From assembly GCA_025336685.1 (NCBI GenBank), contig GCA_025336685.1_4717.1: 64,000 bases of DNA. The stretch is one strand, 5' to 3'. Of this stretch, positions 4,142 to 36,415 are shown piece after piece. The stretch is from Escherichia coli. GTDB lineage: Bacteria > Pseudomonadota > Gammaproteobacteria > Enterobacterales > Enterobacteriaceae. Positions within the stretch are counted from its first letter, which is position 1; each line of letters opens with the position of its first letter. The position numbers were made by a program, and so were the translations under genes. The notes under the pieces are model-generated. The model was not told the origin of the DNA and did not search any database. It was given only the letters and a program-made list of their open reading frames with translations.

Positions 4142-5724
4142 ACCAAACAGCGATAAACATGGGTCTTATCGCCGGTGCTGGTAAAGATAAAGGCTATGTG
4201 GAAGAAGGGGGTACCGTACTCCACCAATATTCAATCGGTGGCCAGAACGTTGAAGAATTCATCAACTACGCCTCTAAGACGCTACCGGGGATTTATAAGA
4301 AAGGTGGTGGGATCGATATCTACCAGATTGCAACACGTCGTCAGCGTATACAAAACGCATGGGTACGTCGTATTCAATCCATGATGGAAAACGATTACTC
4401 GTCTTACGAGGAGTTCTGGAACGATCTTGATAAACGACTTGATAGCGGAGCATTTCCATCGGATGTAACCGGTCGTACGTTAACGCAGTATCTCGCCGAC
4501 ACACAGAAGTCTGCTGTTTACAGTGCGACAGCTGGTGATAATAAACAAACGATGGACGACCTTTTATTCGGAAGGGCCTCATACACCAACAAGGATGCTG
4601 ATGCCAACTTCAAAGTCTCGGCGGCTACCTCCGACGGTGGTACGTCAACACAGAGTCAGGGTACAACAGCCAATGTCGGTAATTCGACATCAGGGACAAC
4701 GCAGGCTGCAACAGCAGCATCGACGGCTGGAGGTGCGAACGTACAGAGCAAAGGGATCGGTCAAACAAATGCGGCCGAGGAAGCTACGTTTCTTGATCTG
4801 ATGGATGCTGAACTGGCTGACGGTGCTCAGTTTATCAGTTTTCGAGTCGATTCTGTCACCAGCGTAACCGAAACGTTTTCAAACAGCGCTTCAGAAAGTT
4901 CAATCGCACAGACGATGAATAGCCGCGCGCAAGCGAACATCGAACGTCGTTTCACCCTCTCCGGTGGTAATACAGGTTGGGCTGTACTAGACGAAGCCAT
5001 CAAAGCCGGTTCCGATCTCGTCAATGGTGCTATTTCCGGGATGGGTCTGGATGGTATTTTTGGTGCCTTCATGGGTTCCGGATTCGCTGACATTCCGAAA
5101 TTCTATTCTGGGTCGTCAGTAAGTCTACCGCGTGCCGATCTGATGATGGAATTGCGTTCCTGGAGTGGGGACCGCTGGTCGATCTTTACGAACCTCATGG
5201 TACCTCTTTTAGCTATCCTCGCAGGTGGCTTACCTCAGGCTACCGGTAAATCGTCCTACGGGATGCCGTTCATGTGTGAGTGTTATATTCCAGGTAAAGT
5301 CCAGATTAAAATGGGTCTTATCGATAACATCACTGTGACGCGTCATGTTGGAAACGTACCATCGACACGCGAACGATTACCGTTGGGCATCGATGTCAGC
5401 TTCAGCGTTTATGACCTATCGTCCATCGTCGCAATGCCGATCACAACGACAGCTGCATCGATCGCAAAATTAGATCCTCGCGGCTTCTTAAGTGATCTTC
5501 TTGCTGATGATACTCCGCTCAACAACTATCTTGCTGTATTATCGGCATTGACACTTACGGAACAAGTTTACATGATTCCTGATTTAAGTCGTCGCATGCA
5601 TAAAACCATGGCCGATATCGATAGTTTCTGGAGCAAAGGTAATTTTGCTAGCTGGTTGTCTGACACCATGCCAGGCAGGATAGCATCAGGGCTGTTATGG
5701 AAACGTACAGAACGACCGTTCTGA
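4105..5724 (+). CDS. Hypothetical protein, possibly structural (start uncertain; alternative ATG at 4159)
   Basis: Long ORF with Ser/Thr/Gly-rich low-complexity stretch; no motif recognised. Confidence 0.5.
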   Translation: MHVYWASFQTLVNQTAINMGLIAGAGKDKGYVEEGGTVLHQYSIGGQNVEEFINYASKTLPGIYKKGGGIDIYQIATRRQRIQNAWVRRIQSMMENDYSSYEEFWNDLDKRLDSGAFPSDVTGRTLTQYLADTQKSAVYSATAGDNKQTMDDLLFGRASYTNKDADANFKVSAATSDGGTSTQSQGTTANVGNSTSGTTQAATAASTAGGANVQSKGIGQTNAAEEATFLDLMDAELADGAQFISFRVDSVTSVTETFSNSASESSIAQTMNSRAQANIERRFTLSGGNTGWAVLDEAIKAGSDLVNGAISGMGLDGIFGAFMGSGFADIPKFYSGSSVSLPRADLMMELRSWSGDRWSIFTNLMVPLLAILAGGLPQATGKSSYGMPFMCECYIPGKVQIKMGLIDNITVTRHVGNVPSTRERLPLGIDVSFSVYDLSSIVAMPITTTAASIAKLDPRGFLSDLLADDTPLNNYLAVLSALTLTEQVYMIPDLSRRMHKTMADIDSFWSKGNFASWLSDTMPGRIASGLLWKRTERPF

Positions 5725-8033: not shown

Positions 8034-8054
8034 TCATCATGAAGGTAATATAGT
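8034..8054 (+). promoter_or_regulatory. Conserved 21-mer CATCATGAAGGTAATATAGTC (candidate promoter), about 32 nt upstream of the 8087 start
   Basis: Identical 21-mer recurs at 35790..35810; contains a TATAGT (-10-like) hexamer with ATGACA 16 nt upstream at this site. Confidence 0.45.
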
Positions 8055-8086
8055 CCTGTTATTTTTTTCAATACGGAGAATGTAAA

Positions 8087-16588: not shown

Positions 16589-17965
16589 ATGAAATTTCCA
16601 ATACAACTTAACCGAGGACGTCGAATGATTAGTATTTTTGGTTTTTATACGTACAAAGGGTACGCTAATAACCACCCAAAAACCACGGCGAAATTCGGTG
16701 AGTTCAGCCAGCATAGTGCTACGTTCAGTCGCGAGATCGGCATCTATACCAACACGGCGTACGCACGTACGACCCTGCTGGTATTGAATGCAGAAAACGA
16801 AGCTGGTGAAGCACAAACGCTGGATGACAACACCGCAAATCAGATTCTTCAGGTTGGTCAATGGTTGCTGGAAAAAGCCTCATCGGGCGAAATCCAGGAT
16901 GACAGAGACCAGGTTATCAGCTACCTAAAAGACGACTTCACAACGTATTTGGATTCTATCGACATCCCGACACCCACCACCGATGGGAAAGTCTATCTAC
17001 CGGCGTGGATCAGTTTCAAGATAACCGCCACGGGTGATGTTGTCAAGATATGGCTGTCTGATAGCGTATTCCAAAGTCAATATCCAAAATACGAATATGA
17101 AGTCGTTCCTCCTGTTCCTAAGGATCAGTTAGACACCTTCTTCGAAGATCTGGCAACGTTGAAGAAACTGGTTGACAGTCGAAGCAGCGAGAAACTGACC
17201 GAAGAAATCAACGAGGTGCGCGACCAATTCCCAGACACACAATTGTGGACGAAAACCTATAAAGCGTACGATTACACCGACGATTCGAAGTACATTGATA
17301 CCGATTGGACGGTGATTATCTACGGTGCAGCAGGTAACAATATTGATAATATCAAGGAGTTCCTGCAAAACTGGATTCTTAGCAATAGTACGCATGGACG
17401 CCCAGACTGGGAAATCGTTCTGCCTGATCTTTTTATTCCGACAGAACACATCTTCATCCCAATCTGGAACCGCCACAGCGCTCCGGAGATGACCAATCAG
17501 GCACGTATTTATAGCCCCATCTTCGATGATTCGTTGATGGATACCTACCTGAAAAACTTTGCTGATGGTTACGGTGAAACCGCCGAAGTCCGTAAATCGC
17601 TTCAAGCGGTGCCGACGCTGTGGCGTTCGATCGGTTTCTTAAGTGTTGGTAACTCACGTAACCGTGATGGTAAACTTAAGTTCTACGATCGTTGGCCGCA
17701 ATACGCACTCATCAGCACAACCAGCATCGATATTAACCGTATCGACGACGCGACACGTGAATTCATCACGTTCACTTACGAGATGCTGAAACTGGCGGAA
17801 TCGCTCACTGAAGACGACCCGGTACCGTTGGGTTATAGTCGTGTTACGCGTGGTAGCAATAACTTCTTAGCGAAAAGCCACAACGATGTTCAGTATCTCT
17901 TCTTAACAAAAGAAGCGTTCCTGAAGAAAATGCCGGATGAAGCCGACACACCTGTTGGAGGTTGA
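16589..17965 (+). CDS. Hypothetical protein (458 aa), possibly structural
   Basis: Long ORF; stop is followed 2 nt later by the next ATG (coupled). Confidence 0.55.
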   Translation: MKFPIQLNRGRRMISIFGFYTYKGYANNHPKTTAKFGEFSQHSATFSREIGIYTNTAYARTTLLVLNAENEAGEAQTLDDNTANQILQVGQWLLEKASSGEIQDDRDQVISYLKDDFTTYLDSIDIPTPTTDGKVYLPAWISFKITATGDVVKIWLSDSVFQSQYPKYEYEVVPPVPKDQLDTFFEDLATLKKLVDSRSSEKLTEEINEVRDQFPDTQLWTKTYKAYDYTDDSKYIDTDWTVIIYGAAGNNIDNIKEFLQNWILSNSTHGRPDWEIVLPDLFIPTEHIFIPIWNRHSAPEMTNQARIYSPIFDDSLMDTYLKNFADGYGETAEVRKSLQAVPTLWRSIGFLSVGNSRNRDGKLKFYDRWPQYALISTTSIDINRIDDATREFITFTYEMLKLAESLTEDDPVPLGYSRVTRGSNNFLAKSHNDVQYLFLTKEAFLKKMPDEADTPVGG

Positions 17966-21160: not shown

Positions 21161-21178
21161 CTAGGTAATATAGCCGTG
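21161..21178 (+). promoter_or_regulatory. Promoter-like motif CTAGGTAATATAGCCGTG in a divergent intergenic region
   Basis: Shares the AGGTAATATAG core with the 21-mers at 8034 and 35790; lies upstream of the plus-strand gene 21283..22104. Confidence 0.35.
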
Positions 21179-23447: not shown

Positions 23448-24629
23448 CTATTTCGTTTTCGCCGTCAACGGTTGCGATACCGTAATCTCGACACGATTCT
23501 CATCGGTACGTTTAACGATGATAAGGCTGCGTTCATCACCGAATGGTGCTGCTACCTCGGAAGCCTCTTTAAGATTTTCAAGAATCTCACCGAAAGCTTC
23601 AAATACCGCAAAACCAGAGCTAACATCAATTCTTACTAAATGTACACACACATCGTTTACGGTAACGGTGTCATCCGTCTTGAACCCGCAACAGGAGGGT
23701 AGACAGAACTGACCGTCAGCGCAATTAGCTAGGCATGCCTCGCCACCGAACATTTCTATTAACGTCACCGGTTTAAATGTTTTCTCTGGGAAAGCGCTAT
23801 TAAGGGTATCGTTTCCATTCACGAACCAGATCGTTACTTTATCTTCAGAATACACCAGCCGGTACGGTTGGGTTGCGGACGCTTGCGCTTTATGCTGGTT
23901 AAATAACTTTGATTTTGTCGCAATCACAGCACGACCTTCGGCGTCGAAGTACAGAACTTCATACCCAACACATCCGATAAACACACGACGGTTATTAAGT
24001 TCCGGAATTCTGACTAATAATGCTTCACCGTTGTATCCGGTAGGAACAATACCACGTAGGATGATAGATTCATTGTTCAATACCGAGTTGTCTGCAGTGA
24101 TACTTCGCATTACCGCTGGCGTCACTATTTTATCTGCGGTAGGTTCAGGTTGCTCAGCAATGCGGTCAAAAGGTTCGATGGATACCATGGGAACGAAGTA
24201 TTCAACTATATACTTGTTTTCAGCACCAACGTCCATGACGGTGATCTGCAAACGCGTAGCATCCGAATTCAATGCTTGTCTCACACGTTCCGCATTAGGA
24301 GTATCGCGGTCAATATGAATCAAGGCTTTTACCACACCGTCGTCTTCCAACCATCCTGTTAAAACGCGACCGACGATATCATTCACGTCACGAATCGGGA
24401 AGCACACTTCAGCGCCATCGAGCACCGCTACGATTTTACTGCTAATGACGGGCACCTTACCGTCGTTAAGATGTGCCAACAGACCGGTTAATGCATCTTC
24501 ACTAACCGGATATTTTGTCGTCGTACTGACCACCGGTATGATAAAACGATCTTCGCCGTATTTCTCTGCACCACAGATAACCGGGACTTGAGGACATTGA
24601 TCAACTAGGCCCCATTCAACAGTAATCAT
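23448..24629 (-). CDS. Hypothetical protein (393 aa) with C-terminal Cys-rich cluster
   Basis: Six cysteines within about 25 residues (CLANCADGQFCLPSCCGF...C) suggest a metal-binding site. Confidence 0.5.
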   Translation of the reverse strand: MITVEWGLVDQCPQVPVICGAEKYGEDRFIIPVVSTTTKYPVSEDALTGLLAHLNDGKVPVISSKIVAVLDGAEVCFPIRDVNDIVGRVLTGWLEDDGVVKALIHIDRDTPNAERVRQALNSDATRLQITVMDVGAENKYIVEYFVPMVSIEPFDRIAEQPEPTADKIVTPAVMRSITADNSVLNNESIILRGIVPTGYNGEALLVRIPELNNRRVFIGCVGYEVLYFDAEGRAVIATKSKLFNQHKAQASATQPYRLVYSEDKVTIWFVNGNDTLNSAFPEKTFKPVTLIEMFGGEACLANCADGQFCLPSCCGFKTDDTVTVNDVCVHLVRIDVSSGFAVFEAFGEILENLKEASEVAAPFGDERSLIIVKRTDENRVEITVSQPLTAKTK

Positions 24630-26106: not shown

Positions 26107-28626
26107 TTAAATAATCGTGACATGTTCGTTATACGTTTCAGGGAGAATGATGTTCGTTTTGTCGAGAACCATACACTCGGCTTTACGGAATGATGCGTGA
26201 TTGATAACATAGTGGCTGATGAACCACACTTGGCTTACACGGTGACCATCGACCAAACGACGAACAAAATCCATGGCATTAGATTGGTGCTGCGGATCAA
26301 ATGTTGATGCGAATTCATCCAGCATCAAGGGATAATCCGTAAACCCTTTGTAATGCATCATCGCGATGATAAACGCGATATTGATAATTTCCTTTTGCCC
26401 CTTACTCCCATAAACAATATCTTTTCGCGGTGTCGGATACTTCTCGGTTAGCAGCGGGAAACGATAATTCAATCCTTGCGCATCGATAGCACAAGGGAGT
26501 ATCTGAAGTTGGTATTCCCAAATACTCGCAATGATACCGTTCATGTATTCGACGAACGCGTTGATTGGACCAGCAATTGTTTCAGCAATCAGGCCGTTAG
26601 ATGGACTTAACTCATCCAGAACAAGTTGTGTGTAACTGAGTTGTTCTTCCACCTCTTTTTGCGTTGTTTCCAGCTGAGCCAAAAGCTGTTGGTCGGTTTT
26701 AGCTTCCTGTAACTGCTGTTCGACATGACTTATTCGTCGAACCGTATCAGACATCGCAGCGCGTAATGATTTCGTGTAGAGGTGTTGCAGATACTCCAAC
26801 CACAGTTGTGTTAACGCTTTATCGCTACTATCAGAACGCACCTGGTCTTCCATAATCGCCGTAATGGTTTCCAATCTACCTTCCGTTGCTGTGATGGCTT
26901 GGGTCAATCGTTCAACGGTCGTTAGCAACTCCGTCCTGTTCTTATAAAGCAGTTCTCGGCGTTGCTGTAATGGTTCAACATCAACAGCTTGTACACGTTC
27001 GAGCATGCCTTGAAGATGCTTCCGTTCTTGTTCGGCTTGGGTGTAACGCGCAAGCTTCTCAAATGCGAGCAGCCAATCATTAATGATTCCAATACTGCGA
27101 AACCCTAATCCGTTTTTACGTCCTTCTTCCAGCAGATTGTCCCACATGGGTTTAATGGCGTAATAATCTTTCGTCCAACGTGTTAACTGACGATGCTGCT
27201 CCATCCAAAGCGTATAACGCTGAACCTTCTCACTCAGCTCAGCTAACGATTTCTCTTGTTCTTCAACCCAAGCACGGCCCTTCTGAATACGTTGTTCGAT
27301 GCTTGCTTTGCTGGTCTTTTCTGTCTCACCAACATGAAAGCGATAATTGCATTTTGGGCAGCTGGTCTGGGGTTGATGGTTAAGGTGGTCAAGATGCGCT
27401 TCCAAGTCAGCTAACGCATGTTTCGCGTTACGCAAACGCATTCGTGCCGCCTCTTCCTCCTTGATGTAAGCTTCAGCATCGTAAACATGATAGGTGTTGT
27501 CGGTATCAATCCATTCTTGCAATAGTTCCGTTAACGGAGCCTGAACTTGCGTGAGCTGTTGTAAACAAACCGCGGCGTCCAGATTCATCGTTAAAAGCTC
27601 ACCTGGATGATCATGCTGGAGTTGTTCGTCCAAACGGGCAAGGCGGGCTTTAATCTGATCGATATCGCCTTCTCCAGACTGTTTCAACTGGTCAAGGATA
27701 TTATCGATACCCAACAGCTCGTCAACCTGACTTTCGAGTTTCGCATTCGCATTCGCGAGTTGCTCTCTTAGTTCAGCCAGATTCCGCTGTTCTTGTTGCG
27801 ATGTTCCTCCTTGGTAACGAACAACTGCACGAAGAAGCTCGCGATTAAAATGATGGGCACGTTGTGTGGATTCCAGAAGCTGTCGTTGATCGACATCGCT
27901 ATCGAATAACGGCAATCCCATCATCGCTTCGAGCGCTGAGCGTTGCTGCTTTAACTCTGCTTCCAATCCCTGGTGGTCGGTTCCAGTGTATTTCGCTTCA
28001 ATTCGCTGTGACGTTTCAACCAACTTATTCAATGTATGCTCATTCACCGCTTTCAGTGAACGTACTTGTTGCTTAACCACCTGAAACAACTCAAGCGCAT
28101 AATCGACGTTAACCGGACATATCTGTGTTAATCGTTCGCGTCGTTTCATCGGTCCCATTTCGGTGAACTGGTAAGCTGTTTCGTAACCTAACAACAAACG
28201 AATGGTGTCGTCATTAAGTTCGAAATGTTCTTCGATCAGTTTCCACTGGGCTGGTTGTGTACCACCACCGTTCAGGTTCTCGCTGTCGTTAACGTAGAAC
28301 TCGTGCTTAAACCCTTTTTCTAAACGACTGATAAGACGGTATTGCTTATTACGGTGTTCGCAGCGGTACTCGTAATACCCATCTTTATCAAAATCGGCGC
28401 GCTCGGGAACGGTTGGATACAGCAAAGGCAGTAGACTACTCTTACCCGAACCGTTACTACCTAAAATGAGTTGTACGGGATTATCTGGCCGGATGACCAG
28501 CTCCCGAATCATCCCGGTATCAAAACGATTGAATCCACGTAAGTGGAGATAGGTGCATCGCATGCTATGATAATCCTTCTTCGATACCTTCTGAACCCGT
28601 GGTTCAGAATGCGAAGCTGAAGCCAT
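26107..28626 (-). CDS. Rad50/SbcC-like SMC-type ATPase with coiled-coil and CxxC zinc hook
   Basis: Walker A GSNGSGKSS; long heptad-rich middle; CPKC hook-like motif; C-terminal signature-like SKGQKE, Walker B YPLMLDEFAS, H-loop ISHY. Confidence 0.7.
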   Translation of the reverse strand: MASASHSEPRVQKVSKKDYHSMRCTYLHLRGFNRFDTGMIRELVIRPDNPVQLILGSNGSGKSSLLPLLYPTVPERADFDKDGYYEYRCEHRNKQYRLISRLEKGFKHEFYVNDSENLNGGGTQPAQWKLIEEHFELNDDTIRLLLGYETAYQFTEMGPMKRRERLTQICPVNVDYALELFQVVKQQVRSLKAVNEHTLNKLVETSQRIEAKYTGTDHQGLEAELKQQRSALEAMMGLPLFDSDVDQRQLLESTQRAHHFNRELLRAVVRYQGGTSQQEQRNLAELREQLANANAKLESQVDELLGIDNILDQLKQSGEGDIDQIKARLARLDEQLQHDHPGELLTMNLDAAVCLQQLTQVQAPLTELLQEWIDTDNTYHVYDAEAYIKEEEAARMRLRNAKHALADLEAHLDHLNHQPQTSCPKCNYRFHVGETEKTSKASIEQRIQKGRAWVEEQEKSLAELSEKVQRYTLWMEQHRQLTRWTKDYYAIKPMWDNLLEEGRKNGLGFRSIGIINDWLLAFEKLARYTQAEQERKHLQGMLERVQAVDVEPLQQRRELLYKNRTELLTTVERLTQAITATEGRLETITAIMEDQVRSDSSDKALTQLWLEYLQHLYTKSLRAAMSDTVRRISHVEQQLQEAKTDQQLLAQLETTQKEVEEQLSYTQLVLDELSPSNGLIAETIAGPINAFVEYMNGIIASIWEYQLQILPCAIDAQGLNYRFPLLTEKYPTPRKDIVYGSKGQKEIINIAFIIAMMHYKGFTDYPLMLDEFASTFDPQHQSNAMDFVRRLVDGHRVSQVWFISHYVINHASFRKAECMVLDKTNIILPETYNEHVTII

Positions 28627-28677
28627 ACTTCAGCGTTATTTTCTATATCGTTATTTAAATCAGTAGGAGATTACAGC

Positions 28678-29766
28678 ATGAGCGATCTGGCAACAGACAA
28701 TCGCACAAAAGGGAGTCAGTTAGCTCCAGACAGCAACGTAAGCGTTTTCCGTATCTTTGCCTTGGGTACCGTTGCTGCCGACTTTTCCAATAAAAGTCTG
28801 GAGGAAGATCCTAACCAGGCGCTGGAGGTCTTTCTTGACGAGATGATGTCAGGTGCTGACGGGAAAGTTGAAGCGGCGGGAAGCGTGAAAGAAGTTAGTG
28901 CAACAGACGCTCAAGGGAACAGCTATACGGCAAAAGCGGCAACAACAACCAGCGTGCAGTGTTACTGGTTACCCTTTGGTAGTAATCGGATGACAGCGCC
29001 TAACTTGAGGAAAGGTCAGCGTGTGGTGGTCTGGCGTACTGCCGATGAAGAACAACTCTATTGGCAGCCCAAAGGAGGGGATAGTGAGCTGATGACCATG
29101 GAATCGGTTATCCTCACCGTCAGTGCACGTCCTAGCGCTAAGAAGGACCGTAAATCGATTTCAACGGAAGACTGCTATTACCTAATGGTTGATACCTTTC
29201 TTAAGAAAGCGGTTATCGGTACAAGCGCACAGCTTGGTGAAGTTACCCAAGTCTACATGGAACTTAATCTGGACGAGGGTTACTTACAGGTTGCGGACAG
29301 CGTCCATCAAAACCTACTATTGCTCCATTTTGTCGAGCATATGCTGCGATACCAAAACCAGGACGACAGCATTATCGACGTAACAAAAAAGAACATCACA
29401 TTCCAATGCGAGGATACGCTCAAAGCAATCGCTAAGAACGATATCCGAATGAAAGCAAAAAATATTTATACGGAATGTGAGAACTTTGAACGTACCAGCA
29501 AAACAGAAAGCGTTACGAGTCAGAATGTTTCTTTGAAATGCGATCGCTACACCGCGCAAGTATCAGGACAAACCATATTCAAATGTCCGAATACGGTATT
29601 CACCGGAGCCGTGAGTTTCACTGGTGAAGACGGAAACACGATGACATTGAACGGTAACTTCATACACGTCGCGGGATCTTGGCGTTCACCAAGCGGAACA
29701 AACGTATACACTCACGACCACGGTGGCGTTAAATCCGGTAGTAGTAGAACCGACCCGTTTCAATAA
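28678..29766 (+). CDS. Hypothetical virion protein, possibly baseplate central spike-like
   Basis: C-terminal THDHGG (HxH) resembles the iron-binding apex of gpV/gp5-type spikes; weak. Confidence 0.45.
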   Translation: MSDLATDNRTKGSQLAPDSNVSVFRIFALGTVAADFSNKSLEEDPNQALEVFLDEMMSGADGKVEAAGSVKEVSATDAQGNSYTAKAATTTSVQCYWLPFGSNRMTAPNLRKGQRVVVWRTADEEQLYWQPKGGDSELMTMESVILTVSARPSAKKDRKSISTEDCYYLMVDTFLKKAVIGTSAQLGEVTQVYMELNLDEGYLQVADSVHQNLLLLHFVEHMLRYQNQDDSIIDVTKKNITFQCEDTLKAIAKNDIRMKAKNIYTECENFERTSKTESVTSQNVSLKCDRYTAQVSGQTIFKCPNTVFTGAVSFTGEDGNTMTLNGNFIHVAGSWRSPSGTNVYTHDHGGVKSGSSRTDPFQ

Positions 29767-29789
29767 AACAAAAAAGAAATACAACATAG

Positions 29790-29824
29790 CCTCCTTCCCC
29801 GGCCTTGGTGGCTAGGGAAGGAGG
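29790..29824. terminator. Family hairpin CCTCCTTCCC-loop-GGGAAGGAGG at a convergent junction
   Basis: 10-bp perfect stem with a 15-nt loop, between 28678..29766 (+) and 29840..30277 (-). Confidence 0.5.
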
Positions 29825-29839
29825 ATTATAGTTTATTTA

Positions 29840-30277
29840 TTAACGCACTGCGTTCTGGATGATTTCTTTTCCGATCTTAACCAAAGCAGGTATCTGCACA
29901 GCGGTTGCGCCTCGATGACGAAACGCGGTCGTTAACGCGGTATCGATACTCACAGCACGTCCGTGGAGACGATCGAAGTAGACTTGCGTGATTGCAGCGG
30001 CGTAATCCTTTCGCTGTTTCTTGGTTTGGTTTAACAGCGCCGCACTATGACTAACGATGAAGTAAGCGATTAAGAAGAACGCCGCCGACCGCGAACCGGG
30101 TAGAAAACCTTGTCGCTTAGGAAGCATCTCACAATCGCGAACAGTATTATCATTCGCGAGCTCATCCATGTCAACACAGCATAATTTTGCATAGGTGTGG
30201 AGATAGTGGGTAAAAGCTGAATTTAACATGTTTCTTTCCTCGATTACAATGAGTTCAATGTATAGCTTAAACGTCAC
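29840..30277 (-). CDS. Small hypothetical protein with one hydrophobic segment (start uncertain; internal ATG at about 30229)
   Basis: ORF with hydrophobic stretch AAFFLIAYFIVSHSAALL. Confidence 0.4.
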   Translation of the reverse strand: MTFKLYIELIVIEERNMLNSAFTHYLHTYAKLCCVDMDELANDNTVRDCEMLPKRQGFLPGSRSAAFFLIAYFIVSHSAALLNQTKKQRKDYAAAITQVYFDRLHGRAVSIDTALTTAFRHRGATAVQIPALVKIGKEIIQNAVR

Positions 30278-30335
30278 AGAACGACGTGTAGCGGTTTGTT
30301 TTAATTTCTAAGGGGTTTCCTTATCTAAGATTGAA

Positions 30336-30698
30336 TTAAAGCGTTCTGAAGAGTTCTGTAGCGTTCTCGTCACGTAGACAGGCTTCGTTCAACAATTCAG
30401 CTAACAGCTTCGACCGAACTTCAACAAATGTCCTGAGGCGATGCTCCCATTCTAAACGGATGGTGTAAGTATTATCCAGGTTTTTGTAATCAACGACAGA
30501 TACCGAGCAGCGGGGTTCACGTTTGTTCACAGCACCCCAAACATCTTGAATGATCGCCTTACCTTTCTCAGTACATGTAAACGTTATAACGTAATGATTG
30601 TTCGATGCTTCAACACGAACATCAATAAATTCGTTTTGTAATGTCGAGACCTTGGTTAGACGCTCAATCGCGAGCGATAACCCAACACGTTGTTGCAT
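30336..30698 (-). CDS. Small protein, paralogue family A (1 of 3)
   Basis: Shares the hxFxC(T/S)xxGKxhh(E/Q)xx(W/Y/F) ... WE motif with 30700..31125 and 31127..31543. Confidence 0.5.
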   Translation of the reverse strand: MQQRVGLSLAIERLTKVSTLQNEFIDVRVEASNNHYVITFTCTEKGKAIIQDVWGAVNKREPRCSVSVVDYKNLDNTYTIRLEWEHRLRTFVEVRSKLLAELLNEACLRDENATELFRTL

Positions 30699-30699
30699 A

Positions 30700-31125
30700 T
30701 CAAATCCCCTCTTTCAGAATCTCATTAAGGCTGTCAGTAATCCAGTCGAACTTCGTCTTAATCATGGCTGGGTTCAATCCGTATACTTCCCACACAAGCT
30801 GCGGTTTATGTGTTCCATCGTCCAAACAAAGCACATCGATTGAGAGCATCATACCGCCCGTCAATTTCATGTTCTCACAACTACGAAGATATGCGGATTC
30901 TAGCATTACTTTCCCTAACGCGGTGCAAGCAAACGTTAACCGGGAAGAATACAGGTACGATGAAGTTTTACAGTAGGTTGCTGATATCGGTTGAATATGT
31001 TTGCGGAGTTTGGCGTCTTCACGTAAGAGCAGTAACGTGCGATGTAAACGCGTATGCTCGGTAACCGATGGGCTATATTCACCGATACGCTCTTCGGCGA
31101 CTGATTCAGGCCATTTAATTTCCAT
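30700..31125 (-). CDS. Small protein, paralogue family A (2 of 3)
   Basis: LTFACTALGKVMLESAYL ... VWEVY; abuts its neighbours with 1-2 nt gaps. Confidence 0.5.
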   Translation of the reverse strand: MEIKWPESVAEERIGEYSPSVTEHTRLHRTLLLLREDAKLRKHIQPISATYCKTSSYLYSSRLTFACTALGKVMLESAYLRSCENMKLTGGMMLSIDVLCLDDGTHKPQLVWEVYGLNPAMIKTKFDWITDSLNEILKEGI

Positions 31126-31126
31126 G

Positions 31127-31543
31127 TTATCTTCCTCGATTTTCTAGTTGAGACACAATACCATCAGCAACGTAATGCAACTGGACATTAAAATCCAACG
31201 ACGATACTGCGGAAATTGACCAGCAGGCATTTGAAGCCCAATACAACCCACCTACACCCAAAGAGACTTCCCACGTTAACTTCGTTATGACGTCTCTAGC
31301 TCGCTGTTCACTATATCGAAACGCGTTTTCCAACAATGTTTTTCCCGTTTGTGAACATAAAAAGCAAAGTTTCACATCTGTGCCGGTCTTTTCAAAATCA
31401 AACAATCGAAAATGGTCAACCAAAGAGGGGGTGGAGGCTAGGCATTGCAATGCGTCTTCCAATGCAAGATGGTCTAGCGTTTCTAAGTTTTTGCATGGCT
31501 GCTTTGGTGCGAGTGCGATTGATTTGTGGAATACAACATTCAT
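31127..31543 (-). CDS. Small protein, paralogue family A (3 of 3)
   Basis: LCFLCSQTGKTLLENAFRY ... TWEVS. Confidence 0.5.
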   Translation of the reverse strand: MNVVFHKSIALAPKQPCKNLETLDHLALEDALQCLASTPSLVDHFRLFDFEKTGTDVKLCFLCSQTGKTLLENAFRYSEQRARDVITKLTWEVSLGVGGLYWASNACWSISAVSSLDFNVQLHYVADGIVSQLENRGR

Positions 31544-31591
31544 GATTAGTTCCTCGTAGTGTTAAGTGGGGACAGATGTGTCCCCGGATAG

Positions 31592-32062
31592 TTAGATTAC
31601 ATCCCAAGCCGTGTTAGGTATGGGTTGATTACGATCGATGTAATACATCACGCTTTCTTTAAGCTTGGTTAACGCGTCAGCAACGATGTTCTCCACGGTT
31701 ATCACCTTTTCCATGTTGCCCATTGTATCCTGCCATGTAAACCAATCATTGATGTTATCGATGTATAGGGACTCATCGTCATCCGTCATGACCTGTATAT
31801 TTTCACGGCGATCGCGGGTTGTATACAACGGTGTTTGTACATTCGTTCTAACACGCGTCCAAAGCTTCTCTAGAAAGTTCGACGGTTGATTATTCGTAGC
31901 GATAATAAGCTCACTACGTACTGAATGTTCTCCTCGCTTTTCAATAGCAAATAAACCATCGTAAGTGATGTTCATCAATTTACGGAGGTCATCGTTGCTG
32001 TTCCAGTCTTTTACAACAGCAGGAAGTCGGCTATTGTAACCTTCAGGCAATCTCTCAATCAT
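31592..32062 (-). CDS. Hypothetical protein (156 aa)
   Basis: ORF in the same co-directional block. Confidence 0.45.
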   Translation of the reverse strand: MIERLPEGYNSRLPAVVKDWNSNDDLRKLMNITYDGLFAIEKRGEHSVRSELIIATNNQPSNFLEKLWTRVRTNVQTPLYTTRDRRENIQVMTDDDESLYIDNINDWFTWQDTMGNMEKVITVENIVADALTKLKESVMYYIDRNQPIPNTAWDVI

Positions 32063-32492
32063 CGGTTTCTGCTCCTATATCACGTTTGAGGTCGGCCATC
32101 AGTTTTTCATAATGGTCTTTTATCACGTTCGCAATAACGAATTGCACTTTTCTCACTAGCTGCTCATCGGCATCACTGAATGTAAAAAGCTCACACACAT
32201 CAATCGGTTGTGATGCACCACCAATACGGTAGGTTTTAGTCGATGCGCGCTCAGCAATGACGGGGAGCGGTTCCACAGCGTTCAGTGCGGTACAGATTTC
32301 CGTAACGAGTTCTTGAATGCTGCTTCTGCCTTCGATAATAACAGAACAGCGATAGACATCCACCTCGTTAAGCCGTTCAACGACATCCGCCCTGATTTTG
32401 AAATTTCCAATAAGCGAGCTCACCAAAGTGCTATGCCAGTTGTTCACCACCCCGACCAACAGCGGATGATTCTCAAGATCTCTTCTATTCAT
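32055..32492 (-). CDS. Hypothetical protein (145 aa)
   Basis: ORF overlapping the downstream start by 8 nt (coupled). Confidence 0.45.
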   Translation of the reverse strand: MNRRDLENHPLLVGVVNNWHSTLVSSLIGNFKIRADVVERLNEVDVYRCSVIIEGRSSIQELVTEICTALNAVEPLPVIAERASTKTYRIGGASQPIDVCELFTFSDADEQLVRKVQFVIANVIKDHYEKLMADLKRDIGAETDD

Positions 32493-32571
32493 CAGTTAGC
32501 TCCTAAATAGCGCTACAACTAATTTTTAATGGAAGGGAATATGTTTCCCTTCCTTGGGTTAGTTTAATGCG

Positions 32572-32847
32572 TCATGCAGCTTTACAGCTCGCGTAACATA
32601 CCAGTGTTCCGTTGTTGATTGCCTCAACAACATCCTGGGTCAGTTTGGTCGCAAGTTTATTATCCGCACTCGGTACGTAATAACCTTCTCCTGTTTCAGT
32701 GACTAGGCGATAACGTACTAATCCTACCGCACGCTCGACGCGTAGCACCTTTTCAAGTTTGTGTTTGATGATCTTCGTCAGGCTGACGGCGTCTGATGCG
32801 TAGATTGCTTTATAAACCTTGTTCTTTGCTGTCGGTTTCATCAACAT
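32572..32847 (-). CDS. Small hypothetical protein (start moved to the internal ATG to avoid overlap with 32870..33703)
   Basis: The track ORF 32572..32910 would overlap the upstream gene by 40 nt; the internal start gives MLMKPTAKNK... Confidence 0.4.
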   Translation of the reverse strand: MLMKPTAKNKVYKAIYASDAVSLTKIIKHKLEKVLRVERAVGLVRYRLVTETGEGYYVPSADNKLATKLTQDVVEAINNGTLVCYASCKAA

Positions 32848-32869
32848 GGTTTCTGTTTTCCTTGGTTTA

Positions 32870-33703
32870 TCACGATGCCAGGTCAGCGATATCCCAATGG
32901 GTATAACCAACCTCGCGGATGAGCTCTGCTGTCTCTTCGAACAGTGGGGTAGGGCTAATAACCGGTAACCATTTCCCCTCTCGGGTTATCTTGACTTCGA
33001 CGGTCTGTAAGTTCGTGTTCCAACGAACATCATAAACCAGCGCATAGCCAAGAGGATGAACAAGTCCATCTTGGTTATATGTCTCCAAAAGACCTCGTAC
33101 GTCTTCTTCGTAGGATGTTTTCGACAAGACAGCACGTACTCGTCGCAGCCTCTTCGTGATAACCTTTCCCAGCTCGATGCTCTCCCAGCCTGTCATGACG
33201 CAAGGATTACCATCGCGACGAAGAGACCGAGAAATATAAATAGAATCGTTCGTGGTAAGGTGTACCCACCCAAGATCGCAGTATGCGACAGGTCGTGGTG
33301 ATTCTCCTTCGATAACCGTCGTTTCATCCAACATCGCCACAACACCGCAGTCTGCGAACTCCGGCGATACTTCATCCAGCATCTTAATACGGCTTTCTTG
33401 GCCGGTATGGTCAGGATCGACATGCGCGTAGTAGTAATTAGGCTCTATCGCACGGTATTGCGCAATGCTTCTACGGAAGTCGGTATCCTGCATTCCCAGC
33501 GGGTGGTGATACGCAAGCTGTTGCTTTATACCATCCTTGATTACCAACAGAAGATCTTCGCGATCTGATGCGGGATCCTCCACCACGATGTATTTAACAA
33601 TCGCTTTCAGGTTCTTAACGATGCTATCTGGAAGTTTCTCAATATCCCGCGCATCATAGACACGGTTAACTACAGTGTTTACAAGGTGTTTTGATAAGCT
33701 CAT
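32870..33703 (-). CDS. Paralogue family B protein (1 of 3), function unknown
   Basis: Shares an HPLG(F/Y)-containing C-terminal domain and a (Y/W)(H/Y)PLGMQD N-terminal motif with 33781..34638. Confidence 0.55.
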   Translation of the reverse strand: MSLSKHLVNTVVNRVYDARDIEKLPDSIVKNLKAIVKYIVVEDPASDREDLLLVIKDGIKQQLAYHHPLGMQDTDFRRSIAQYRAIEPNYYYAHVDPDHTGQESRIKMLDEVSPEFADCGVVAMLDETTVIEGESPRPVAYCDLGWVHLTTNDSIYISRSLRRDGNPCVMTGWESIELGKVITKRLRRVRAVLSKTSYEEDVRGLLETYNQDGLVHPLGYALVYDVRWNTNLQTVEVKITREGKWLPVISPTPLFEETAELIREVGYTHWDIADLAS

Positions 33704-33780
33704 CGATGATCTCTCTTTGTTATTTCTACCGATAACGCGGCATAAGGGGACAATGATGTCCCCGTGTTAGAATCAACTAC

Positions 33781-34638
33781 TTACGGCTTCAAATCCGAAA
33801 TATCCCATCGTACGTAACCTGTACGCTCAATTTCATGAACCAGTTCCTCGGTTTGTTTCTCAACACCGACAACGGGAACCCAATTCAACTGTTGGGTGCG
33901 TTTACCGATGTTAACCTCGACACGCTGCAGATCATCATTCCAACAAACCCCAGCCGGTTTCACAAAACCCAGCGGGTGGATAAAACTAAGATCGTCGCTG
34001 AAATCACGAAGAACGCGCAACGTATCGATGGTTGAAGGGTTATCACAGCGAACAAGGCGTACGCTTTGCAATTTATCGTATACCGCTCGAGCTACACGTT
34101 CATCGCGCCAGTTCGTCATGAATACCGGTTTTATACCACGTTTTAGAAGATGATCGATCTGGATTGCGATGTTATCGTGAACATACATGCAACCCTGTTC
34201 GGTTTCGGTGTTGCAGCCACCGTCCTCTAACCGGTTCGGATACGTCTGATGGTCTACCGTCACAGCAACTCCTTCAGCGAGCGTGGTCAACGGAAGAAGA
34301 CGTTGTAGACTCGTTATTGGATAATCAGGCGACATCCCAGGACGGATATGCGCCATCGTACCCCAACTGTCAGGGAATCCGTGTCGGTATGTGTATTGCC
34401 TGAATACCTCATCCTGCATCCCTAACGGATACCATCGTGCAAGCCGCTGTTGCTCGCCATCCTGAATAACAAAAAGCATTTCTTTGCGATTCGGCCATCG
34501 ATGATGTTCCACGGTCAAGCCATCAACAACCGGTCTTAAGTTGACTTTGATATGCTCGGGAAGTTTATCCACCTCTTCGCGACGGTAAAATCGATCGACG
34601 ACGATGATATCAACCTTCCCGTGATTGAACCAATTCAT
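33781..34638 (-). CDS. Paralogue family B protein (2 of 3), function unknown (start moved to ATG 34638, MNWFNHG)
   Basis: WYPLGMQDEVF and IHPLGFVKPAGVCWNDDLQRVEVNI align with the other two family members. Confidence 0.55.
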   Translation of the reverse strand: MNWFNHGKVDIIVVDRFYRREEVDKLPEHIKVNLRPVVDGLTVEHHRWPNRKEMLFVIQDGEQQRLARWYPLGMQDEVFRQYTYRHGFPDSWGTMAHIRPGMSPDYPITSLQRLLPLTTLAEGVAVTVDHQTYPNRLEDGGCNTETEQGCMYVHDNIAIQIDHLLKRGIKPVFMTNWRDERVARAVYDKLQSVRLVRCDNPSTIDTLRVLRDFSDDLSFIHPLGFVKPAGVCWNDDLQRVEVNIGKRTQQLNWVPVVGVEKQTEELVHEIERTGYVRWDISDLKP

Positions 34639-34926
34639 GTTAACTCCCTCTGTGGTGCGAAAACAAAACATCTAATTGCTCCCGTTGTTCTTTTAAGTAT
34701 GCGGGAAGCTGGTCTTCCCGTACCGTTCCGATTTCCAACGTGATATACCAGCGTTGTTCGGAAGCCTGCCATTGAAAACTGCTCTGTAACCGCAGGATGC
34801 TAGGATCGTGTACCTTGCTTGCACTGTAACGGTTGAACCAATTCAGGTATCCTGCTTTCCCTTCCTCATCAGCAACGTAACGCTGCACGCTGTTCTTCCC
34901 TTTGTTTTCGTATCCTGTTGCGTGTA

Positions 34927-35709
34927 TCATGCGAACGTTTCTCCTGTAACGTGTTGTGGGCGTTGTAGCATGGTAGCATCCCATTGTACGATCCGGCTCC
35001 GGCTTACCCGCATCATGACGGATTCATCGTCAAGCCCCGGTTGCGCAACCGGCAACCAACGTTCGTTAAGCACCTTCGCTTCAACCCGTTTCTTGCGTGG
35101 GTTGTAACGCACCTCGCTAACCCAAGCGAATCCAAGCGGATGCACAACCCGTGGATAATACGTGCGAAGCAATTGATGCATCCGATCCAGTACCTCCAAG
35201 CTCGCATCGGCCATGTATGGTTTCACCATGGTAAGCTTTTTGGTGTAATACGTCCCAACGGTATGGTTCGCCCACCCGGGAAGCACGTGATGGAATCCTA
35301 CCTGTAATTGTGTATTGCCGTTCACCTTCAGCCAACCGTATTGTCCAGCCGCACGTCCCTCGTCAGTATCGATCCATGTAAGTATATCGATGAACGCACG
35401 ATCGGTGATCTCGATGCGTTCCACCCGTTCATCCAACGCACCACGTACCACGAATCCGCTCGCGCTCACCCGCGCAGGATGCTGGCTGCGATGCGCGTAC
35501 CAATTCTTGTTGCCGGTAAGCAGGTAAGGGTACGTGTGAGCACCCCGCCAAACAACCGTTCCGTTCGTCCCATCAACACAGTGTACATACATCCCATCTT
35601 GACCGTTGTTGTAGCATGCTACCTTCACGCATTCGTTTTGAACATCGCTCGGTAACGCCAGGTATTCACCTTCGGTAAACATGGTATCAAAAATGATTTC
35701 TTCGTTCAT
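34927..35709 (-). CDS. Paralogue family B protein (3 of 3), divergent N-terminus
   Basis: C-terminal VHPLGFAWVSEVRYNPRKKRVEAKV aligns with VHPLGYALVYDVRWNTNLQTVEVKI of 32870..33703. Confidence 0.55.
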   Translation of the reverse strand: MNEEIIFDTMFTEGEYLALPSDVQNECVKVACYNNGQDGMYVHCVDGTNGTVVWRGAHTYPYLLTGNKNWYAHRSQHPARVSASGFVVRGALDERVERIEITDRAFIDILTWIDTDEGRAAGQYGWLKVNGNTQLQVGFHHVLPGWANHTVGTYYTKKLTMVKPYMADASLEVLDRMHQLLRTYYPRVVHPLGFAWVSEVRYNPRKKRVEAKVLNERWLPVAQPGLDDESVMMRVSRSRIVQWDATMLQRPQHVTGETFA

Positions 35710-35789
35710 CTAAAAAGATCCTCTGTTTTTCACGTTAATTAAACAACGTATTGATTTCTATTTAACGCAATACGAACATCGTACGTATG

Positions 35790-35810
35790 CATCATGAAGG
35801 TAATATAGTC
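35790..35810 (+). promoter_or_regulatory. Conserved 21-mer CATCATGAAGGTAATATAGTC (second copy)
   Basis: Exact 21/21 identity with 8034..8054; sits at the left edge of the AT-rich region, pointing into it. Confidence 0.4.
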
Positions 35811-36415
35811 GTGAAAGGATTTGCATTAAAGCAAGGGTAATTGTTTTGTTTTAAGAAGGGATGGATGATAGCGGTATCTGAAAGGAGAAGGATTTTAAGG
35901 AAGGTCTTGATTGAAGTAAGTGAAGAGGATGATTATTTCGGTTTAAGTAAGTAGGTAAGTTATCGTGTTATTGTTTTTTGTCTTAATGGTTTTATCGTTT
36001 TATCTGTTGTTTATATAAATCAAATTAAATTATAAAGTCAGTTAAGATGTTGGTTAACAACGTTCAACTCAAAAAACCATTTGTGATACTCTTCTTCACG
36101 TTGTTCATCAGAGTATCTCGTCTATACTCATTGCATTCGTATACGACATAACCGTTATACGCTAACGCTACGCTTATAGCTTGATAACTCTAAGGATAAA
36201 AACATAAACTCGCTTCGCTCGTTTAGTTTTTCTTTTTCTTAGAGTTATCCTGTTGCTCGTCTCTAAAGGACTTCGCTCCTCCCCCGTCCCCCGAAGGGGC
36301 CGAGGTCGTGGAAATTTTACTTTCCAAATACATTTACAACATCTGTAAACTTTTACTCCAGGTACTTAATCTTATCATTAGAAATTATAAAGAGAAGAAT
36401 AAACACAAACATAAA

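Follow-up and report, generated by a model that had tools for sequence, protein, structure and literature searches.

A tandem trio of diverged paralogous genes in the most variable block of a Goslar-like jumbo phage locus

Three small genes that abut on the minus strand of the 64-kb stretch of DNA analysed here (the window) are functional, translationally coupled and tandemly duplicated, and are the orthologues of gp17, gp16 and gp15 of Escherichia phage vB_EcoM_Goslar, a chimallin-encoding, nucleus-forming jumbo phage (Goslarvirus). Profile comparison identifies them as genuine paralogues, of which the gp15 member is the most diverged, and comparison with related genomes indicates that the alleles of each gene were exchanged independently by recombination between otherwise near-identical phages. 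The trio belongs to a known phage lineage and represents a small-protein family of common fold that is functionally uncharacterised; nothing in it points to a new type of system or mechanism.

The trio and the small-gene block around it

A preliminary description of this DNA had pointed to three abutting genes of 120–141 aa, 1–2 nt apart, within a block of roughly 6 kb of small unknown genes. The open reading frames agree exactly: they are A3 (31127–31543, 138 aa), A2 (30700–31125, 141 aa) and A1 (30336–30698, 120 aa), all on the minus strand, with spacers of 1 nt each (TAA-C-ATG and TGA-T-ATG) and a GAGG/AGGA Shine-Dalgarno sequence upstream of each ATG. The Goslar proteins gp15, gp16 and gp17 (QBO63808–QBO63810, HOV27_gp015–017) are annotated as 'hypothetical protein', and amino acid identity to them at 95–100% coverage is 51% for A3/gp17, 94% for A2/gp16 and 81% for A1/gp15; A3 is 97–99% identical to the gp17 allele of Shigella/E. 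coli-associated relatives. Positions 28000–36000 of the window align with Goslar at 91% nucleotide identity over only 58% of their length. Compared with Goslar, the window combines a Goslar-type gp16 with a non-Goslar gp17 allele and carries an extra 145-aa gene and two more copies of a second gene family (family B).

The minus-strand block that holds the trio lies between the Goslar gp13-like tail-spike gene (28678–29766, plus strand), which bounds it on one side, and the DUF7941 virion-filament genes gp22/gp23. Its small genes, which are without assigned function, span 29840–35709 (~6 kb), where the region varies far more than anywhere else. The last gene of the block is a gp14-like gene (29840–30229, minus, 129 aa) that is 95–100% conserved among relatives. 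The trio is adjoined by three further small genes and the family B array, both present as described before. A 156-aa gene (31592–32062, minus) encodes an acidic (pI 4.75), distant homologue of gp18 (37%), a 145-aa gene (32055–32492, minus; pI 4.97, likewise acidic) is absent from Goslar, and a 91-aa gene (within 31592–32847, minus) corresponds to gp19. Goslar and several relatives have a single gene of 133–135 aa, whose product is 37% identical to the 156-aa protein, in place of the 156-aa and 145-aa genes, and the difference therefore amounts to a cassette replacement. Membership of the 156-aa and 145-aa genes in the family of the trio was rejected (hhalign probability 0.1%). Family B consists of paralogues of 277, 296 and 260 aa (32870–33703, 33781–34671 and 34927–35709, minus; pairwise E 7e-37 to 2e-5) without a match in Pfam or PHROG, with a gp20-like gene (34640–34930, minus) within the same region; it is present in one copy in Goslar, two in the Shigella/E. 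coli-associated genomes and three in the window and in an IMG/VR contig.

Probable transcription signals that bound the block

An early-promoter-like 16-mer, CACGACTATATTACCT (35798–35813, minus), precedes the first gene of the block by ~90 nt. The motif CACGRCTATATTACCT has three copies in the window (35798–35813, 21163–21178 and 8043–8058; two of them exact), all of which are intergenic, on the minus strand and upstream of minus-strand genes. In Goslar, the same motif is found upstream of gp21, of the chimallin gene (Goslar_00189), of the nvRNAP subunit gene gp175 and of gp182. Genes for nvRNAP are early genes. Since the 16-mer also precedes Goslar chimallin and nvRNAP, it probably serves Goslarvirus as its early promoter, read by the virion RNA polymerase, by analogy with phiKZ, whose chimallin homologue gp54 carries an early vRNAP promoter motif (PMC8244752).

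At the opposite end, a strong hairpin with a U-rich tract (29767–29830, minus; −28.7 kcal/mol, z −4.4) follows the gp14-like gene and is probably the terminator of the block; a terminator is annotated at the equivalent position of Goslar. From the 16-mer to this putative terminator, we infer an early unit of ~6 kb running from gp21 to gp14, and the position of the trio inside this unit makes early expression probable. This timing is, however, read from the motif, and internal hairpins could interrupt transcription. A perfect palindromic hairpin without a U-tract, GGGGACA-N4-TGTCCCC, occurs in the 48 nt that separate A3 from the gene upstream of it (31568–31585) and again in the intergenic region upstream of the 277-aa gene (33746–33763), and nowhere else in the 64 kb (0 copies expected by chance); both copies are in the block. 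A third, unrelated hairpin, GGAAGGGAA...UUCCCUUCC, was seen at ~32530–32553. A scan for sigma-70 promoters gave results at chance level, and a search for Goslar transcript data in the searchable literature found none.

Paralogy of the three genes

BLASTP between A1, A2 and A3 was marginal (E 6e-4 to 6e-3) and chiefly covered a motif of 17–18 residues, whereas Goslar gp17 matched A1 at E 1.4e-5. A profile search collected 42 relatives, which form three subfamilies. In hhalign, the gp16 and gp17 families aligned over their full length with 95.9% probability (E 5e-9, 130 columns), gp15 and gp17 with 71% (E 3.7e-5), and gp15 and gp16 with 42% (E 2.6e-4). When the subfamily HMMs were run against a background of 1172 ORFs, the other two genes of the trio were the best non-self matches of the gp16 and gp17 models (E 4.9e-8 and 0.0032, and 8.8e-5 and 0.0072, respectively), whereas the gp15 model was weaker: it found A3 at E 0.074, and several unrelated ORFs outranked its match to A2 (E 4). 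Once orthologues are included, the statistical case for paralogy is sound, which bears out the proposal that the three genes are paralogues, with a weaker link for gp15. The subfamily HMMs detected no further paralogues of the trio in the window or in ~49 kb of Goslar.

Distribution, allele exchange and selection

Among 1.84 billion representative proteins searched by HMM, the family turned up only in Goslar-like phages; at sequence level it is absent from other chimalliviruses. Two other matches were rejected as artefacts, namely a 3205-aa protein made of tandem copies of a eukaryotic ubiquitin-protease unit (P0047, E 1e-12) and a DUF11-type repeat protein (P0048, E 6e-4), whose scores are sums of 9–10 weak repeat matches and call for caution about repeat-rich false positives. 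Family members came from assemblies labelled E. coli, Salmonella or Shigella, on contigs of ~236–259 kb, in keeping with reports that such phages have turned up almost exclusively as 'persistent' lytic phages within assemblies of bacterial isolates (10.1101/2024.12.31.630880; PMC12768965). In one such study, 59 of 60 Goslar-like genomes, all closely related, derived from bacterial isolate assemblies and were described as 'persistent' virulent phages (10.1101/2024.12.31.630880).

The preliminary description had proposed a comparison for presence/absence variation across related phages. The trio itself showed none, since all relatives examined (10 related loci) carry it in one and the same order, but gene content does vary in its flanks. 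Against seven relatives, the flanking tmk, RuvC, gp11, SbcC and tail-spike genes showed 97–100% amino acid identity, compared with 81–88% for A1, 57–94% for A2, 50–99% for A3 and 37–99% for the next gene. Each gene of the trio occurs as deeply diverged alleles (50–57% identity), and dS between divergent alleles is at least 1.5 or saturated, compared with 0.05–0.37 in the flanks. Since dS of the alleles far exceeds that of the flanks, the alleles are much older than the genome backbones and were swapped by recombination, rather than having evolved fast in place. They are combined as A3.1-A2.1-A1.1 in the window, A3.2-A2.1-A1.2 in Goslar, A3.1-A2.2-A1.1 in four Shigella/E. coli-associated genomes and A3.1-A2.3-A1.3 in an IMG/VR contig, and the combination of the window matches none of the relatives retrieved.

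Nei-Gojobori dN/dS was 0.25–0.36 for A1, 0.15–0.24 for A2 and 0.14–0.23 for A3, and 0.01–0.04 for SbcC, spike and gp11. By these codon comparisons the trio is under purifying selection, with constraint about ten-fold more relaxed than in the core genes, and at gene-wide resolution (dN/dS <1) there was no signal of positive selection. The variation is concentrated in the predicted β-sheet, above all in the β3-β4 hairpin, while the helices and the N-terminus are conserved: in the gp16 family, conservation is highest in the N-terminal peptide, helix α1 and the loop after it, and lowest in the β3-β4 hairpin and the loop before it, and the long C-terminal helix of the gp15 family hardly varies.

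One sample (GCA_047444535.1, JBLGDT010000081.1, 1405–1740) contained an in-frame fusion, P0042, of residues 1–42 of the 156-aa gene with residues 70–138 of A3, which deletes ~550 bp. This may mean that an intact A3 and 156-aa gene are dispensable, or that the genome is defective.

A fold signature and the predicted structure

The preliminary description had noted that the three genes share hxFxC(T/S)xxGK and a downstream WE(V/H) motif. Of these residues, all 42 members have only the Phe, the Gly and the downstream Trp in common. The Cys is ~90% conserved, and the Lys and the Glu of the WE motif vary: Cys is replaced by Phe in the Goslar-type gp17 allele, Lys by V, M or L in many gp15 alleles, and the Glu is not conserved. 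In the structural models described below, the motif runs from the last part of strand β2 through a turn to the N-terminus (N-cap) of helix α2; the Cys position is likely to be buried, given the interchange of Cys and Phe. FxC(T/S)xxGK is a fold signature at a predicted strand-to-helix junction and not a catalytic site or a P-loop, because only the Phe, Gly and downstream Trp are invariant. A P-loop NTPase (Walker A, GxxxxGK[ST]) was also ruled out directly, since CxxxGK lacks the upstream Gly and a Ser/Thr after the Lys, the Lys is replaced in the gp15 alleles, and the predicted sheet consists of two β-hairpins.

AlphaFold2 was run with the family alignment for A1 and A2; the two alignments overlap, and hence the models are not fully independent. 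The A2 model (pLDDT 90.8, pTM 0.85) has the topology α1(19–36)-β1(44–55)-β2(58–67)-α2(69–84)-β3(91–100)-β4(106–116)-α3(119–139). The A1 model (pLDDT 92.5, pTM 0.84) has the same topology, without the N-terminal extension and with a long, nearly invariant C-terminal helix. As modelled, the family is a Goslarvirus-restricted, 14–16 kDa single-domain protein with a two-layer α-β-β-α-β-β-α sandwich.

Searches of Pfam, PHROGs, NCBIfam and PADLOC (defence-side models) with the trio and 33 family members gave no significant match, and in Pfam none of the 33 members matched at E up to 10. PDB sequences searched with the family HMM returned only noise at E >0.5. Five of the 33 members matched phrog_43 weakly (E 0.0036 or higher), and assignment to the GPW/gp25 baseplate wedge was rejected. 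Acidic DNA mimics of the Ocr/ArdA anti-restriction type were ruled out by pI values of 6.73, 6.42 and 6.05, with D+E about equal to K+R. A literature search found no paper discussing Goslar gp15–17 or phiKZ gp290.

Remote structural neighbours

Foldseek against predicted viral structures gave, as top matches, uncharacterised proteins of other chimalliviruses and large-genome phages (E 5e-5 to 1e-3, TM 0.5–0.6), from Erwinia phages Simmy50, Stratton and Kwan and from PhiPA3 (gp356), 201phi2-1, PDCC-1, RaK2 and VP4B. In BFVD, PhiPA3 gp356 scored E 9.6e-5 (TM 0.58) and 201phi2-1 B3FJY3 E 1.3e-4 (TM 0.61). The annotation of PhiPA3 gp356 notes its similarity to phiKZ gp290. The group of PhiPA3 gp356, phiKZ gp290 and Erwinia phage RAY gp314 (phrog_21654, phrog_7413) comprises, like the trio, small proteins of nucleus-forming jumbo phages, is the best viral structural neighbour of the trio (Foldseek E ~1e-4, TM 0.58–0.61) and has a similar strand-Cys-x3-Gly-helix junction. 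Unlike the trio, its members are single-copy rather than in a tandem array, have 164–165 aa and carry the motif SCE(G/S)HP, which the trio lacks. PhiPA3 gp356 matched phrog_7413 at E 1.5e-10; the best match of the trio family was A1 at E 0.0086, and only 3 of its 33 members matched at all. With hhalign, the trio family and gp356+gp314 gave no significant alignment (probability 5%). Word-indexed searches to widen the gp356 family returned only the queries and close Erwinia-phage relatives.

PhiPA3 gp356 (17374–17868 of its locus) and RAY gp314 (4968–5465) are themselves uncharacterised chimallivirus proteins, in which SCE(G/S)HP is preceded by D-P-x-(I/M)-L-P-(I/V)-(I/V)-x-E-(F/L)-N-x-I-E-G; RAY gp314 lies three genes downstream of thymidylate kinase. 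SCE(G/S)HP may resemble the active-site region of TYW3, which carries an SSCSGR-type Ser/Cys-rich active-site motif. The Pfam TYW3 model (PF02676) matched neither the trio family nor the gp356/gp314 group, and a gp356+gp314 profile searched against the PDB returned TRF2 alone, a spurious match, and not TYW3. Among known structures, the N-terminal domain of TYW3/Taw3 (UPF0130; PDB 2qg3, 2drv, 2dvk and 1tlj) may share the fold of the trio, at 7–16% sequence identity; the trio spans only part of the 166–191-residue TYW3 fold, and de novo designs and RNAP α score equally well. The trio has no conserved polar or catalytic motif, and no family member contains an SSCSGR-type motif. Remote kinship of the trio with PhiPA3 gp356 and TYW3-like proteins is a lead only. 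Small inhibitors encoded by phages that have two-layer α/β folds, such as the T7 Gp1.2 dGTPase inhibitor (PDB 7u65), share with the trio a very common fold and no sequence relationship.

Detection in virion preparations and possible roles

Label-free (LFQ) mass spectrometry of purified Goslar virions put gp17 at an estimated ~19 copies per virion (4 peptides), gp18 at ~4 and gp16 at ~0.6, so that gp16 and gp17 are translated; gp14, gp15 and gp21 were not listed. Low-copy detection is not proof of virion residence, because chimallin and PhuZ were present in the same preparation at ~126–170 copies. In the 28-protein cryo-EM model, gp15–17 are absent.

By compartmentalisation, nucleus-forming jumbo phages escape DNA-targeting immunity. 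Little is known of their activities in the cytoplasm in the first minutes, or of what decides which strains they infect or persist in. With some hesitation, we read the trio as non-enzymatic protein-binding modules that may act on variable host or host-defence targets through their exposed variable sheet. The 16-mer would drive early transcription of the gp21–gp14 unit, before or during formation of the phage nucleus, each paralogue would engage its own variable target through the β-sheet, and duplication and allele swapping would supply different specificities. The preliminary description had called the region an accessory or counter-defence island, which holds insofar as a variable block follows an early-promoter-like motif, but the trio is not a presence/absence element. 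Its counter-defence part is a reasonable guess; no link to a defence-related family emerged from Pfam, PHROGs, NCBIfam, PADLOC or the PDB. The binding-module reading is opposed by the same want of a match to any known anti-defence family in the first four of these databases, by the constant presence of the trio, which is unusual for dispensable counter-defence cargo, by the gene-wide dN/dS below 1 without a positive-selection signal, and by the ~19 copies of gp17 in virion preparations, which fit a virion role better.

Such a role, which we consider unlikely, would make the three proteins low-copy peripheral adaptors of the baseplate or fibres, chaperones of assembly, or proteins that are packaged with the genome and injected along with it, with alleles that set host-range or adsorption specificity. 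It would accord with the neighbours of the block, which are the tail-spike gene gp13 on one side and the DUF7941 filament genes, a glycosidase gene and a Peptidase_S74 fibre gene on the other, with the copy numbers of gp17 and gp18, with the large parts of the peripheral baseplate that are unmodelled, with the weak matches to phrog_43, a 'baseplate wedge subunit', and with mosaic allele exchange, a common trait of receptor-binding modules. Against it speak the early-type motif, the lack of gp15 and the mere trace of gp16 in virions, and a level of detection that is that of contaminants. More doubtful still is a hetero-oligomer in which the three paralogues together serve a conserved housekeeping function during Goslarvirus infection, such as a part in the biology of the early vesicle or nucleus, or that of an assembly platform resembling RNAP α/Rpb11. 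Independent reassortment of the A1, A2 and A3 alleles is hard to square with co-evolving interfaces, the natural in-frame fusion of the gp18-like gene with A3 lacks half of A3, the family is missing at sequence level from other chimalliviruses, and the abundances of gp15, gp16 and gp17 in mass spectrometry differ more than 30-fold. We give only a very slim chance to descent of the trio, as degenerate pseudoenzymes, from a jumbo-phage family with a TYW3-like fold (PhiPA3 gp356/phiKZ gp290/RAY gp314, phrog_7413/21654) whose members were enzymes or cofactor binders, which would be compatible with the trio acting as binding modules.

A fuller scenario built on the binding modules, highly unlikely to hold in all its parts, is that the trio are diversified early effectors of Goslar-like 'persistent' phages, possibly delivered in part by the virion (gp17), that each paralogue neutralises or hijacks a different strain-variable host factor before the nucleus forms, that allele swaps tune which strains of Enterobacteriaceae are infected or persistently carried, and that the family may have come from a TYW3-like one without the active-site motif. 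The locus is a clade-specific, probably early block with anciently diverged, freely reassorting alleles in near-identical genomes, and gp15–17 with their neighbours make a short candidate list for the study of host interaction and counter-defence in Goslar, a genetically tractable E. coli model. Outside the block, the Goslar gp9 homologue (23448–24629, minus, 393 aa) shows 63–98% identity among relatives and lies between the fully conserved tmk and RuvC genes.
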